A DNA stretch of 25,893 nt from a virus. This document shows positions 774-6,015 of this stretch, piece after piece. Under the pieces are notes generated by a model. It made no database searches. It was given only the letters and a program-made list of their open reading frames with translations, and had not been told where the DNA came from. The position numbers and the translations under genes were made by a program. The DNA is taken from UHGV virus genome UHGV-1613375; one strand, written 5' to 3'. Position 1 is the first letter of the stretch. Every line of letters begins with the position of its first letter.

Positions 774-1352
774 ATGATTAATCCTTCTGAAATTGGCAAA
801 ACGGGTGAAATGGTTCGTCTTCGTACTCTGGAAAGTATCTGGGTTCAGGGGAAGCTCCGCATGTGGGGGCGTTGGTCTTATATCAGTGGAGGGACTAGCG
901 GTAACATGTTTAACCAACTGCTTGTATCCAGCAAAATTACCAAAACTGCAATCAACGATGCGCTGCGCCGTATGAAAAAGTCAGGCATTACGAAACCAGA
1001 GCTCGAAGCTTATTTGCGCGAAATACTCAACAGTAAAAACAAAAGTAGTCTGGCGTTTTGCTCGGACGATGAAGGCCTGAAGATTGACGGTGTGATCGCC
1101 TCGGTGCTGATGAATAATGATTACCGTTCTCTATACGGTGTGATTGTTGGCCGGTATTGTCTGCGTAAGAGCAAGTTGCAAATGGCCAATGAGCTTCATA
1201 TTAAACATCCTGACTGGGCGCTCATTACCTGTCGCCGCCGAGTTGACACATGGATAAGTTTGGCCGAATCGCTCCTGTACGCTCCACTATGTGATGCGTT
1301 TGGCACAAATAGCGACAGATTTAAATTGCAAAGTGAGCAAGAAAGTGCTTGA
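774..1352 (+). CDS. Putative late-gene antitermination protein Q
   Basis: 192-aa ORF with GGAG 8 nt upstream of the ATG. Lies between the nin-region protein and the lysis cassette and is followed by a terminator hairpin, the canonical Q / PR' / tR' position. Family assigned by position and general resemblance only. Confidence 0.5.
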   Translation: MINPSEIGKTGEMVRLRTLESIWVQGKLRMWGRWSYISGGTSGNMFNQLLVSSKITKTAINDALRRMKKSGITKPELEAYLREILNSKNKSSLAFCSDDEGLKIDGVIASVLMNNDYRSLYGVIVGRYCLRKSKLQMANELHIKHPDWALITCRRRVDTWISLAESLLYAPLCDAFGTNSDRFKLQSEQESA

Positions 1353-1491: not shown

Positions 1492-2883
1492 ATGCTCTGT
1501 GGAGGTCTTTCTTTGCGAGACTTTATGCATAAACTGCATAAAGTTTTGCGACCAACGGGTCCAGTTGTTTCTATGGAACTGTTATTTGGACGTGAAAAAC
1601 ATGTAACCGATCTCGAATTGGCGCTTTATGCTACAGGTCGGCATGCTTTCATTTATGGTGATCGCGGAGTAGGAAAGACATCCTTAGCGCAAACTGTTGC
1701 TTTTAAGCTGCAGGAAGATGCTGAACCTATTTTGGTTGGCTGCGAGAAAGAATCCACTTTTTCAAGTGTCATGAATGACATTATTTTGCGAGGCACACCT
1801 CAGGATAAGAAAATCGATACACAGGGATGGAGCTTTGGCTTAAATGTGGCTGGAATTGGTGGTATCAATGCTGGTCAAAATCAAAAATATAATTATCCAG
1901 AACTGAAAATTGACTCAGTTTCTGCAGCCGTTCGGGCGTTGCAATTTTTAACTAAAGTTCACTCAAAGATTCCTTATATAGTTATCGATGAGTTTGACCA
2001 AATTGACTCTGATGAAGAACGACAAAAGTTTGGATCACTCATTAAACAACTTGGTGATCAGGCGTGTGAAGTAAAATTAATTTTTACGGGGATTGGTGAT
2101 TCTCTCGTTACTTTAATCGGAGGGCATAAATCAAGTGAGCGACAAATACATCAGGTACATCTCGATAGTTTACCATGGAATGGTCGTTTTCAAATAATTG
2201 ATAATGCTTTCGATGAGTTTGGCCTGACTGTCGATGATTCTGTCCGCTATAAAATTGCGGGTCTTAGTGACGGGTTCCCGAACTACATTCATCTTATTTG
2301 TGAAAAAATCCTTTTAACATGTCAAAGCTCAATACGTGAATACAGCTCTGTTGATTACAACCTTTTCATTAAAGGGTTAAATGATGCAATTGATTCAGTC
2401 TCGGAAACTTTAAGGCAAAGTTACACGGATGCAACAGAGGGACGTGATGAGTCATATAAGCATATTCTTTGGGCTATGTCCGATATGGCTGATTTGACCA
2501 GACATAAGACTCATATATCAGAATCGTACGTTAAAATTTGCAAATCGCTTGATGTAACACCTTTAGATAAATCCACGTTTGAGCGAAAGTTCAATGCATT
2601 GAAGAAACCGACATTTGGATGCATCATCATCCCTGCTTTAGGGAATCGTCCATCTTGGTTTCGATTTAGAGAAAACATGCTTCGTGGTTATATTCGAATG
2701 AGAGCGGAGCAGCATGGACTTGAGTTGGACTTCCAAAATTATCGTGTTGCTGGAGAGCATTCTGCTAGGGCTATAGGCAAATACTCTGCTTATAAACCGT
2801 TAACTAATGTTGAAGGACGAGTAGCCAAGCTAAGAGGTGATAACGACTGGCTTGACGACATAAAACCAAATCCTATTAAGTGA
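1492..2883 (+). CDS. Orc1/Cdc6-like (Arch_ATPase/AAA_16-type) P-loop NTPase with probable C-terminal winged-helix region; AT-rich cargo gene of unknown function
   Basis: SD CAGGAG at 1479-1484, 7 nt before the ATG. Walker A GDRGVGKTS (aa 56-64), Walker B YIVIDEFD (aa ~162-169), N-terminal LFGREKH motif and GLSDGFPNYIHL sensor-like motif, as in archaeal-type AAA+ ATPases (recalled family logo). Much more AT-rich than the flanking phage genes (by eye) and bracketed by terminators at 1403-1430 and 2907-2935. Confidence 0.8.
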   Translation: MLCGGLSLRDFMHKLHKVLRPTGPVVSMELLFGREKHVTDLELALYATGRHAFIYGDRGVGKTSLAQTVAFKLQEDAEPILVGCEKESTFSSVMNDIILRGTPQDKKIDTQGWSFGLNVAGIGGINAGQNQKYNYPELKIDSVSAAVRALQFLTKVHSKIPYIVIDEFDQIDSDEERQKFGSLIKQLGDQACEVKLIFTGIGDSLVTLIGGHKSSERQIHQVHLDSLPWNGRFQIIDNAFDEFGLTVDDSVRYKIAGLSDGFPNYIHLICEKILLTCQSSIREYSSVDYNLFIKGLNDAIDSVSETLRQSYTDATEGRDESYKHILWAMSDMADLTRHKTHISESYVKICKSLDVTPLDKSTFERKFNALKKPTFGCIIIPALGNRPSWFRFRENMLRGYIRMRAEQHGLELDFQNYRVAGEHSARAIGKYSAYKPLTNVEGRVAKLRGDNDWLDDIKPNPIK

Positions 2884-3795: not shown

Positions 3796-4259
3796 GCAGA
3801 GTCACCGCGATTATCTCCGCTCTGGTTATCTGCATCATCGTCTGCCTGTCATGGTCTGTTAATCATTACCGTGACAACGCCATCACCTATAAAGACCAGC
3901 GCGATAAAAAAGTTAGTGAGCTGCAGCTGGCGACCGCCACCATTACTGACATGCAGCAGCGCCAGCGTGATGCTGATGCACTTGATGCTAAATACACGAA
4001 GGAGTTAGCTGATGCGAAAGCTGAAAATGATGCTCTTCGGCGCAAGCTTGATAATGGTGGTAGGGTGCTCGTCAAAGGCAGATGTCCAGTGCCAGCCACA
4101 ACAAAAGCCTCCGGCACCGCCAGCGTGGGCAATGATGCCACCGTCGAACTCTCTCCAATTGCTGGACGAAACCTTCTCGGTATCAGATCCGGAATTATCA
4201 GAGATCAAGCATCATTGAGAGCGTTACAGGAATATATTGACACTCAGTGTCGGAAGTAA
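3792..4259 (+). CDS. Rz: Inner-membrane spanin Rz (i-spanin)
   Basis: ATGA overlap with the R stop. N-terminus [31 protein letters not shown] matches lambda Rz (recalled); N-terminal TM segment followed by a coiled-coil-like region. Confidence 0.9.
4012..4218 (+). CDS. Rz1: Outer-membrane lipoprotein spanin Rz1 (o-spanin), embedded in Rz in the +1 frame
   Basis: [19 protein letters not shown]: signal peptide with lipobox Cys, then a proline-rich segment ([13 protein letters not shown]), closely resembling lambda Rz1. Fully nested inside Rz. Confidence 0.85.
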
Positions 4260-4325
4260 ACTCTTTTGCTGGAATAAATAGTTATTGCGAATAGGTGCTG
4301 CTAAATGTTGGTTGCTTGTGTAAAA

Positions 4326-4359
4326 TATAGTGGTAAGGTGTCTTTTTTATAGTGGTAAG
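4326..4359 (+). repeat. Two perfect 12-bp direct repeats TATAGTGGTAAG, 22 bp apart, immediately upstream of the second cargo ORF
   Basis: Copies at 4326-4337 and 4348-4359, each containing a -10-like TATAGT; the second ends 5 nt before the ATG at 4365. Confidence 0.6.
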
Positions 4360-4364
4360 TACGC

Positions 4365-4973
4365 ATGGACTATTTTTACATAGCAACTAAATCGCAAAAT
4401 CCTTGGGTTAAGTATAGGCCTTTGGCAGTAGGAGATTTAGCTAGCACCTCATTCCCAAATCCCTTTTTTAATTATTTCTTAAGTTCAAACATCCCTCCAA
4501 TACCAGTAAATGTTAACGGGCATCTAACTGACTATACGAGAATGCAGTGGCTTTATGGCCTAAAGACAGGGTCACTTACTACTAAGTGTTCTGTACAGGA
4601 TATAGCGGCAGTTGGTCAAGAATTGGCTATGCATTTTTGTAAATATACTAGAGAACTGATTTGGGAAGCCGTTCGAGTTGAATATTACCCAAAAAAGCCT
4701 TCAAGACAGAAATGCTTATGGGTTTCACAAGGTGAAGAAAGTCTTTACTATTGGATTTCGCAGTTGGGATTGGGGGACAATCAGACTGTGTTCAGAGTTG
4801 AGTTGGATGGAGTTATACATGAGGCGAGTGATGAACATTTGATGAATGACGATATACCGTATGATATTGCCTTAGAAAAAGCTCATAAATATTGGAGTGG
4901 TGAAATAGTTGATCCGTTAAAAAAGGAAATACTTTTTGAAGGAAATATGCGGATTCTAGAGCACATTTTATAG
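4365..4973 (+). CDS. Hypothetical protein, AT-rich cargo gene between lysis cassette and HNH/terminase; no recognisable motif
   Basis: 202-aa ORF in an AT-rich island (by eye) with AT-rich flanks, followed by a weak hairpin plus T6. No signal peptide, TM segment or catalytic motif recognised. Confidence 0.6.
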   Translation: MDYFYIATKSQNPWVKYRPLAVGDLASTSFPNPFFNYFLSSNIPPIPVNVNGHLTDYTRMQWLYGLKTGSLTTKCSVQDIAAVGQELAMHFCKYTRELIWEAVRVEYYPKKPSRQKCLWVSQGEESLYYWISQLGLGDNQTVFRVELDGVIHEASDEHLMNDDIPYDIALEKAHKYWSGEIVDPLKKEILFEGNMRILEHIL

Positions 4974-4992
4974 CCGCCTTCTGGCGTTTTTT
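4973..4992 (+). terminator. Weak terminator-like hairpin plus T-run after the cargo ORF
   Basis: CGCC(4975-4978) / GGCG(4983-4986), 4-bp GC stem with TTCT loop, followed by TTTTTT (4987-4992). Confidence 0.3.
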
Positions 4993-5044
4993 GTTGCCAT
5001 CACCATGGACAAACATCATCGTGATGATTGCAGGAAAACTTTAA

Positions 5045-5395
5045 ATGCCACCACGAACCCCAAAAGCCTGCCGTGTTCGCGGCTGCCGCAATACCACGAC
5101 TGATCCGTCAGGCTACTGCGAAAGCCACAAAAGCGAAGGCTGGAAGCAATACAAGCCAGGACAATCCCGTCATCAGCGCGGTTATGGTTCGAAATGGGAT
5201 GTTATCCGTGAACGTGTGCTCAAGCGTGACAAAGGCCTGTGTCAGTTATGTCTGCGTGCTGGTGTGGTGCGTGAGGCGAAAACCGTTGATCACATCATCC
5301 CTAAAGCGCATGGCGGCACCGATGCAGACAGTAATCTGCAGAGCCTGTGCTGGCCGTGTCATAAGGCGAAGACGGCCCGTGAACGGCTGAAGTAA
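5045..5395 (+). CDS. HNH endonuclease, terminase-associated
   Basis: 116 aa with Cys/His pairs (CRVRGC...C..H, CQLC...H.IP..HGG....NLQSLCWPCH), a classic phage HNH fold, located directly upstream of terS/terL as in HK97-like cos phages. Confidence 0.85.
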   Translation: MPPRTPKACRVRGCRNTTTDPSGYCESHKSEGWKQYKPGQSRHQRGYGSKWDVIRERVLKRDKGLCQLCLRAGVVREAKTVDHIIPKAHGGTDADSNLQSLCWPCHKAKTARERLK

Positions 5396-5421
5396 GAACC
5401 AGTTCCCACTGCCAGAGGGGA

Positions 5422-5480
5422 GGGGCGGGTCAAATCCCTGTGACCTGACGTCTTCCGGACTGCCCGCCCCATCGTTTTTT
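5422..5480 (+). other. GC-rich inverted repeat GGGGCGGG / CCCGCCCC (33-nt loop) followed by T7; candidate cos/packaging region or terminator
   Basis: GGGGCGGG at 5422-5429 pairs with CCCGCCCC at 5463-5470, followed by ATCGTTTTTTT. Lies between the HNH gene and terS, where cos sits in HK97-like phages; GGGGCGGGTC loosely resembles the lambda cohesive end GGGCGGCGACCT (recalled). Confidence 0.35.
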
Positions 5481-5520
5481 TATACCCGCGAAAAATGAAA
5501 TTTAACCAGGAGTGCCGCAT

Positions 5521-6015
5521 ATGGCTGGAACGGCGGGGCGTTCCGGGCGTCGCCCCAAGCCAACGGCGCGCAAGGCGCTGGCCGGAAACCCCGGCAAGCG
5601 AGCCCTGAATAAAGATGAACCTGTTTTTACGCCCATCAAAGGTGTTGAGCCACCGGAGTGGTTCGCTGAAGAAGATCTCCCTCTCGCCACGATCATGTGG
5701 CAACTGACAACCAAAGAACTCTGTGGTCAGGGCCTGCTGTGCGTGACTGACCTCGCGGTGCTTGAGCGGTGGTGCGTGGCCTACGAGTTCTGGCGACGTG
5801 CCGTGAAAAATATTGCCAGACAGGGCAACACCATCATCGGTGCAATGGGCGGCAGGGTCAAAAATCCGGAGCTGACCGCCAAAAAAGAACAGGAGTCCGA
5901 GATGAACAGTACGGGGGCAATGCTCGGACTCGACCCCAGCAGCCGCCAGCGTCTGATTGGCCTGGCGGGGCAGAAGAAAGCCACTAACCCGTTTCTGAAA
6001 ATCATCGAATCATGA
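5521..6015 (+). CDS. Terminase small subunit (P27-family-like)
   Basis: SD AGGAG at 5508-5512 with ATG at 5521; the track's start at 5512 is GTG. Basic N-terminus; ATGA overlap with the large-subunit start. Confidence 0.7.

Follow-up and report, generated by a model that had tools for sequence, protein, structure and literature searches.

A perfect 12-bp direct repeat over the predicted promoter and leader of a moron-like DUF2441 cassette in a lambdoid Escherichia coli prophage

Morons are autonomous promoter-gene-terminator units that lambdoid and HK97-like phages carry as insertions within their late operons, a concept associated with Hendrix and Juhala, with lambda bor and lom as the classic examples. 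Among sigma70 promoters, galP1 is the type of the extended -10 (TGn) class. In phage P2, the C repressor binds two 8-bp direct repeats that are spaced 22 bp centre to centre and span the -10 of the Pe promoter (PMC2995052). A near-duplicate of the -10 region, placed early in the transcribed DNA, causes sigma70-dependent promoter-proximal pausing; in lambda pR' this element occupies +1 to +6 with GGG after it, and in phage 82 pR' it includes an extended -10 and stands ~21 bp from the promoter -10 (PMC5001585). Here we compare with these systems a perfect 12-bp direct repeat that lies directly upstream of a cargo gene in a prophage. Throughout, the window means the whole stretch of DNA that was analysed (25,893 nt, virus genome UHGV-1613375); positions are counted from its first nucleotide, and the features discussed are collected in Table 1.

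The window corresponds to the late region of a lambdoid E. coli prophage. Its GC content is 0.36-0.41 over positions 4200-4999, compared with 0.50-0.63 in the flanks, and backbone homology to the window breaks inside or at the end of Rz and picks up again at 5038-5045. Related prophages fill the slot between Rz and the HNH endonuclease gene otherwise, either with iss, a bor homologue (in O157:H7 FRIK2455), or with unrelated hypothetical genes in either orientation. Because homology breaks at Rz and resumes at 5038-5045, with other cargo in the slot of the relatives, the segment from ~4260 to 5037 is an exchangeable cargo cassette, foreign and modular. The cassette codes for the DUF2441 protein alone, and ATG 4365 is its true start, since the N-terminus MDYFYIATK is conserved in homologues. 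Like morons, the cassette is inserted between two backbone genes where related prophages have different cargo, deviates in GC content, and ends in its own conserved intrinsic terminator, and it has a predicted promoter that scores weakly in the window; unlike the classic morons, its cargo is an uncharacterised DUF2441 (ART-clan) protein, and a conserved 3' block follows the terminator. Most likely, it is a self-contained cargo (moron) unit in the variable Rz-HNH/terminase slot.

DUF2441 has been assigned to the Pfam ADP-ribosyltransferase clan (PMC7955679), and its sole solved relative is a structural-genomics entry, 2AUA. The cargo protein matched no PADLOC family and no NCBIfam family, and a literature search by its protein accession returned nothing. 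Of 5426 complete E. coli genomes, 50 carry the DUF2441 segment, none of them below 99% identity, and one of the 50 is labelled O25b:H4-ST131; the phage collection gave no match. Homologues of the protein at 45-80% identity were found in Escherichia, Citrobacter, Enterobacter, Scandinavium and metagenomic or viral contigs. Where their context is visible, they usually lie directly after the lysis cassette and ahead of the packaging genes, and the lysis cassettes that precede them in other prophages are of four different and unrelated kinds. Relatives at 80-99% identity were not found: the E. coli search of distant matches gave only cassettes at 99% or above, a metagenome scan for intermediate relatives gave only loci at 97% or above or at 58% or below, and a scan of genome contigs for relatives of the cassette gave one distant locus.

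Table 1. Features of the window around the DUF2441 cassette; coordinates are window positions.
Feature	Coordinates	Strand	Remarks
Q-like gene	774-1352		
P-loop ATPase cargo gene	1492-2883		
Holin, GH24 lysozyme and Rz genes	Rz ends 4259		
Long hairpin, 5' arm	4308-4331	+	Predicted; covers the -35, the spacer and the TATAGT of copy 1; complementary to codons 2-9
Predicted -35, TTGCTT	4312-4317	+	TTGC block kept in relatives; 16 nt upstream of the -10
Copy 1 of TATAGTGGTAAG	4326-4337	+	Spacer end (last 5 nt), TGg and first 4 nt (TAAG) of the predicted -10
Predicted extended -10, TGgTAAGGT	4331-4339	+	TG at 4331-4332; -10 TAAGGT at 4334-4339
Predicted start zone, T-run and conserved TA	4343-4349	+	6-10 nt after the -10; inferred from the position of the -10
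Copy 2 of TATAGTGGTAAG	4348-4359	+	Predicted transcript start and weak Shine-Dalgarno GGTAAG
DUF2441 cargo gene	4365-4973	+	202 aa; GC ~38%; Pfam ADP-ribosyltransferase clan
Long hairpin, 3' arm	4369-4390	+	Predicted; codons 2-9 of the DUF2441 gene
Intrinsic terminator, CCGCC-TTCT-GGCG-TTTTTT	4974-4992	+	Directly after the stop codon
Conserved 3' block, TTGCCATCACCATGG...CATCGTGATGA	4994-5027	+	Only beside DUF2441 genes; 3' edge of the cassette
HNH endonuclease gene	5045		Followed by P27-type small and large terminase, head and contractile-tail genes

The initial annotation of this DNA had reported an exact 12-bp direct repeat in a 22-bp register just upstream of ATG 4365, and we reproduced both its coordinates and its identity. 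The repeat TATAGTGGTAAG is a perfect 12-mer present in two plus-strand copies, 22 bp apart from start to start, in surroundings that read gtgtaaaa TATAGTGGTAAG gtgtcttttt TATAGTGGTAAG tacgc ATG, with copy 2 stopping 5 nt (tacgc) short of the start codon. The identity of the two copies ends at 12 nt (the flanking bases are a and t on the 5' side, g and t on the 3' side), and the 10-nt stretches that follow each copy match at 2/10 positions. A repeat search of the window returned the same pair (family D2). The possibility, raised at the outset, that the motif is dispersed more widely did not hold up: no third copy was found at two or fewer mismatches in the 25.9-kb window, nor any further copy, at the same threshold, in 40.8 kb of the same prophage from E. 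coli THO-003, a stretch that adds the integrase, early/immunity and replication regions to the window. Sub-words of the repeat outside the pair came to one 9-mer and one 8-mer, both within structural genes. Five of the viral contigs that contain the pair are matches to the same DUF2441 cassette; the pairs in two others (L031 and L036) are coincidental collagen-like GYSGKS coding repeats (GGA TAT AGT GGT AAG AGT) and were set aside as irrelevant. Iterons of a replication origin, which would call for three or more copies beside an initiator gene, were also rejected: the repeat has two copies, and these lie in the late region, with lysis genes on one side and packaging genes on the other.

The pair is the sole perfect direct repeat of at least 12 nt within 50 bp in the window. 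When the window was shuffled 1000 times with dinucleotide composition preserved, 6.2% of the shuffled windows held one or more such repeats, with a mean of 0.095 per window. Restricted to the 105-bp intergenic region, the expected number is ~4e-4, a figure that is post hoc. The repeat is thus unusual across the window (p ~0.06) but not compelling, and within reach of chance.

To place the repeat in its family, the upstream regions of the window, of a near-identical variant (L012) and of five relatives at 61-80% protein identity were aligned. They align base for base without a 22-bp indel, and TTGC stands 53 nt from the ATG in the window compared with 52-55 nt in the relatives. The counterparts of copy 1 in the alignment are TAAAATGGTAGC (L008), (A)TATGGTATC (L006), AAAATGTTATT (L014) and TATAATGTTAGG (L029), and those of copy 2 in the relatives are TACAGGCGGAAG, TGCAATTGGAAG, TGTCAATGGAAG and TTTAAGGGAAAG; in L008, the closest relative, the two sites agree at 5/12 positions. 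Across these aligned regions, the perfect repeat is specific to the E. coli lineage of the window and absent from homologous cassettes. A 22-bp tandem duplication was rejected because the upstream length is equal in the relatives, with nothing added in the window, and the remaining 10-mers are unrelated (2/10), only 12 of the 22 nt being common. Compared with L008, the perfect repeat takes ~8 point differences distributed over the two copies, each of them towards the sequence of the other copy; counted per copy, the changes are ~3 in copy 1 and ~3-4 in copy 2. Selection for identity would also produce such mutual convergence. Among 12 near-identical cassettes, there is no substitution in either copy, but overall identity is at least 99%, so this comparison has almost no power. 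In L012, one T fewer in the intervening T-run gives a 21-bp register, and T4313C is present in both L012 and L069. Invariant columns of the upstream alignment include C4315, G4332, T4334, A4335, T4339, T4348, A4358 and G4359. No consensus RNA structure was found in the alignment by RNAalifold, and a small upstream open reading frame at 4305-4352 was dismissed, as it is not conserved in the relatives.

The same alignment points to a promoter beneath copy 1. G4332, T4334, A4335 and T4339 are invariant in 7/7 aligned upstream regions and T4331 is kept in most, and the four n positions of TGnTAnnnT all vary across the alignment; because the key positions are invariant and the n positions variable, we read TGnTAnnnT as an extended -10. 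Its register is held in 5/6 distinct sequences, and an in-register TGnTAnnnT in at least 5/6 sequences arose in 0.015% of 20,000 column shuffles. In a position weight matrix (PWM) scan, which used rough sigma70 base frequencies, the arrangement TTGCxx-16-TGnTAnnnT was the top hit in L008, L006 and L014, the second best in L029 and the fourth best in the window, and its positions are homologous. Taken by itself, the window promoter is weak, with 3/6 matches in the -35 and 3/6 in the -10 plus the TG, and its PWM score of 6.2 is about the background mean (6.3, averaged over the best hit in each 150 nt of the window); the window-alone score being unremarkable, the case for the promoter rests on conservation. 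TAAGGT is the weakest -10 of the cassette family. The conserved TA at 4348-4349, at which transcription would begin in the relatives, lies ~9-10 nt after the -10 in the window compared with 6-7 nt in the relatives, and the distance from the -10 to the conserved A is 2-3 nt longer in the window than in the relatives, through the T-run. The promoter that scores highest on the window sequence alone, CTGCTA-17-TAAAAT (9.1, ~90th percentile of background), was discarded, as it is not conserved in the relatives. Like promoters of the galP1 type, the candidate has a TG one base upstream of a poor -10 with T-12, A-11 and T-7, together with a weak -35. The comparison supports a sigma70 promoter of the extended -10 type over copy 1, with both its activity and its start being predicted.

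We also considered that the cassette has no promoter of its own and is transcribed only by read-through from the Q-antiterminated late promoter, in which case the repeat would be pure chance and the upstream conservation would come from common descent or from constraints at the RNA level. The DUF2441 gene has the orientation of the late operon, a consensus-based scan called no plus-strand promoter in the spacer upstream of it, and a repeat of this kind turns up in 6% of shuffled windows; in addition, AT-rich upstream blocks are complementary to the first codons and could account for part of the conservation. However, invariance coincides precisely with the positions that define an extended -10 (T/G/T/A/T) and those in between vary, four relatives have a -35-like TTGC with the correct spacing of 16 nt, more distant homologues show other TAnnnT hexamers (TATGAT, TATACT, TATGCT, TAAAAT) 27-38 nt upstream of their ATG, and the cassette has its own conserved terminator. 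On balance, we think it unlikely that a cassette promoter is absent.

The extended -10 beneath copy 1 is not the promoter that had been proposed at first, namely TATAGT as a -10 hexamer in each copy, the two together forming a duplicated promoter. TATAGT matches TATAAT at 5/6 positions, including A2 and T6, but neither hexamer has a -35 or a TGn, and even when each is paired with its best available -35 the PWM total is only 2.0 and 0.4, respectively, compared with the background mean of 6.3. A second start at ~4360 would leave a leader of ~5 nt without a ribosome-binding site, the region has no 22-bp duplication and the same total length as in the relatives, and the hexamer is unconserved in the relatives at both sites. 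In copy 2, the hexamer equivalent to the conserved -10 is TAAGTA, which is without a T at -7 and without a -35, and from which transcription would begin within the coding region. Duplicated or tandem promoters built on the two TATAGT hexamers are therefore very improbable in our estimation. What stands of the proposed control of the cargo gene is that the repeat lies in its control region, with copy 1 over a promoter that has comparative support.

Another reading is sigma70-dependent pausing. Like the pause elements of lambda and 82 pR', copy 2 would be a near-repeat of the -10 region within the first ~20 bases of the predicted transcript, with a G-rich discriminator after it; unlike at lambda and 82 pR', the cassette promoter is not a late pR', the in-register hexamer of copy 2 has no T-7, and the feature is not conserved in the relatives. 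On this reading, the repeat would be kept since the TATAGT of copy 2 (4348-4353) and the GG after it recapture sigma70 at the moron promoter, stalling RNA polymerase ~10-12 nt further on (~4363-4372), at the start codon. The 22-bp period of the repeat (21 bp in L012) is near the ~21-bp spacing of phage 82, both key bases, A at position 2 and T at position 6, are present in TATAGT (-10 score 4.6), and this hexamer would occupy ~+1 to +8 of the predicted transcript and be followed by GGT, which fits if transcription starts at 4338-4349. The register, however, pairs TATAGT with TATAGT, yet the conserved -10 is TAAGGT, and for that reason the identity of the 12-mers is not what a pause needs; the hexamer of copy 2 that is in register with the -10, TAAGTA, is the one that has no T at -7. 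Moreover, the leaders of the relatives contain no TAnnnT, the purpose of a pause at a moron promoter is not evident, and the start site is itself predicted. We consider it unlikely that the repeat is kept for pausing.

The initial annotation had also suggested a pair of binding sites for a regulator. The two copies would then be half-sites of a host or prophage regulator that recognises direct repeats two helical turns apart and, when bound, occludes or activates the cargo promoter. The geometry has a precedent in the P2 C operator O1/O2, to which the locus is similar in having non-palindromic direct repeats with a 22-bp period across a predicted core promoter; the copies stand on either side of the predicted -10 and start site, a perfect match over 12 nt would seldom arise by chance in a spacer of this length, and both copies are intact in 12/12 near-identical cassettes. 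The repeats here, however, are 12 bp and not 8 bp and are unconserved in related cassettes. The spacing changes to 21 bp in L012, the prophage has no other site at two or fewer mismatches, and the pairs in viral contigs are confined to the same cassette, bar the coincidental collagen-like repeats. The cassette has only the DUF2441 gene from which to supply a regulator, and the annotation of the prophage region examined lists CI/Cro-type helix-turn-helix proteins as the immunity genes but nothing of the P2 C repressor type. With the homologous cassettes free of the repeat and one variant in a 21-bp register, the suggested site pair finds no comparative support, and we hold a tandem operator to be distinctly unlikely. 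Overall, the initial interpretation is partly supported: a promoter is present but a different one, and the duplicated promoter and the site pair are without evidence.

At the other end of the repeat, copy 2 coincides with a weak ribosome-binding site. Its GGTAAG aligns with the sites GGAAG, AAGGGAAAG or AAGGAGG of the relatives, and the position of the Shine-Dalgarno-like pairing in copy 2 is the same as in the relatives. The best anti-Shine-Dalgarno pairing in the window lies at -11 to -8 and amounts to -2.9 kcal/mol, compared with -3.3 to -5.8 kcal/mol in the closest relatives. Downstream of the gene, the terminator hairpin (CCGCC/GGCGG) is kept in homologous cassettes, with one compensatory variant (CCACC/GGTGG); in the window its stem is short (4-5 bp) and falls under the threshold of the scan. 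No Rfam families were found in 4150-4500, in 4900-5600 or in the whole window.

A separate observation concerns the folding of the RNA over this region. For RNA 4300-4400 of the window a long hairpin is predicted (z = -3.0), with an inner stem (4338-4344 with 4357-4364) that spans the spacer between the Shine-Dalgarno and the AUG. The duplex is stronger than those formed with shuffled upstream sequences, p being ~0.002 for the window and 0.004 for L008, with weaker values elsewhere, and also stronger than with other real sequence; against real 50-nt segments of the window, the fractions were ~0.001-0.003 and 0.005-0.007. Owing to the duplex, opening of the translation initiation region is predicted to cost 16.7 kcal/mol in read-through RNA, compared with 4.3 kcal/mol in RNA that begins at the predicted start, an effect on accessibility that is limited to the lineage of the window. 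Two natural polymorphisms in the hairpin arms weaken the stem without compensation. In the folding model, the hairpin could gate translation by the origin of the transcript, but it is lineage-specific and not conserved.

The explanation we prefer, which in our estimation has an even chance of being correct, is that the repeat is a lineage-specific coincidence over two ordinary elements and not a functional unit. RNA polymerase would bind the extended -10 promoter beneath copy 1 and the transcript would start near 4345-4349, so that copy 2 would make up the very 5' end of the mRNA, where the ribosome would bind through the weak GGTAAG, 5 nt ahead of ATG 4365, and the transcript would end at the cassette's own terminator. 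The identity of the two copies is probably a lineage-specific accident or the result of a local mutational event, and we infer that the copies have no joint function. What speaks against coincidence is the low prior expectation of a 12/12 match within a 105-bp spacer (~4e-4, the same post hoc figure).

The repeat would carry greater weight if it turned out to act as an operator or in sigma70 pausing, as would the locus if the lineage-specific hairpin silenced translation of the cargo in late read-through transcripts. Were the pause real, it could keep transcription in step with translation of an ADP-ribosyltransferase-like protein that is potentially toxic, or could instead be a loading point for the Q-like antiterminator of the prophage. 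Most likely, though, the repeat lies in the ordinary control region of a moron cassette that is uncharacterised. If this coincidence of ordinary elements is what the repeat amounts to, little would be new beyond a comparative annotation of the cassette (promoter, leader, terminator and boundaries), along with the caution that a perfect short repeat beside a gene can be two unrelated signals overlapping. That annotation shows where reporter fusions belong and which bases to mutate, in a DUF2441 / ADP-ribosyltransferase-clan cassette that several unrelated enterobacterial prophages carry immediately downstream of their lysis genes.

At the cassette's 5' end lies a 22-bp hairpin (the long hairpin in the table below), in which the -35 element and spacer of the predicted cargo promoter are paired to codons 2–9 of the DUF2441 gene. 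Opening the translation start was calculated to cost 16.7 kcal/mol in read-through RNA, the late-operon transcript running into the cargo gene from upstream, versus 4.3 kcal/mol in RNA made from the predicted start. In this folding model, the hairpin in late transcripts could silence translation of the cargo gene. The strength of the long hairpin is limited to the lineage of the window and, in part, to L008 (the closest divergent relative), and it is reduced, with no compensating change, by two naturally occurring variants, T4313C and G4383A.

Features of the cargo cassette and of the first cargo gene
Feature	Coordinates	Location or basis	Details
Long hairpin	4308-4331 with 4369-4390	window	22 bp, z = -3.0
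Inner stem of long hairpin	4338-4344 with 4357-4364	window	
First cargo gene	1492-2883	between Q-like gene and holin	P-loop/STAND-like ATPase, 463 aa
Upstream ORF	4305-4352	seen in the sequence	15 codons (MLVACVKYSGKVSFL)
Terminator hairpin	within 4974-5027	directly 3' of DUF2441 stop codon	CCGCC-N4-GGCGG-T6

The same region holds an upstream ORF with a good ribosome-binding site (AGGTG, 4293-4297), whose frame crosses the first of the two identical 12-mers (copy 1) and stops within the second (copy 2), 13 nt 5' of the main ATG; this ORF was not conserved in the upstream regions of relatives. Copy 1 and the GTG that follows it form a Shine-Dalgarno-like TAAGGTG (4334-4340), which pairs with the anti-Shine-Dalgarno sequence at -7.4 kcal/mol, compared with the weaker -2.9 of the genuine ribosome-binding site within copy 2. 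No start codon lies at a usable distance 3' of TAAGGTG.

Between the copies, the T6 run at 4343-4348 is a slippage-prone tract inside the predicted promoter. It is T5 in one natural variant (L012 2897-3030, IMGVR_UViG_2711768053_000020), giving a repeat register of 21 bp and a shorter -10-to-start distance. Two viral contigs from the environment (L036 1-1500, minus strand, and L031 12900-13100) also contain numerous copies of the 12-mer, where it belongs to collagen-like Gly-Tyr-Ser-Gly-Lys-Ser coding repeats; the match is coincidental and has no relation to the prophage.

The terminator hairpin and the block 3' of it (TTGCCATCACNATGG...CATCGTRATG) occupy 4974-5027 and recur at L009, L021-L023, L028 and L047-L048, with the hairpin of L028 in the compensatory form CCACC/GGTGG. 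The block is present only beside DUF2441 genes and is more conserved than the DUF2441 protein itself (44% amino-acid identity for the L021 protein); it could serve as a second RNA element or mark a recombination boundary.

The first cargo gene, itself in low-GC DNA, was assigned to AAA_16 and phrog_6841, and matched candidate defence families only weakly (mad8 and DS41_1). DUF2441, the family of the second cargo protein (4365-4973), belongs to the Pfam ADP-ribosyltransferase clan (PMC7955679). The only solved relative of this protein is the unannotated PDB entry 2AUA, and searches of PADLOC and NCBIfam matched no family. Its closest divergent homologue, at 80% identity (L008 3929-3970, E. coli GCA_012700625.1), carries an in-frame TAG at codon 14, with the annotation beginning at a later start (177 aa), and is probably a decaying copy. 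The DUF2441 gene was found repeatedly, directly 3' of the lysis genes, in several unrelated prophage types. This recurrence suggests that the protein acts as a toxin, in defence or by modifying the host.
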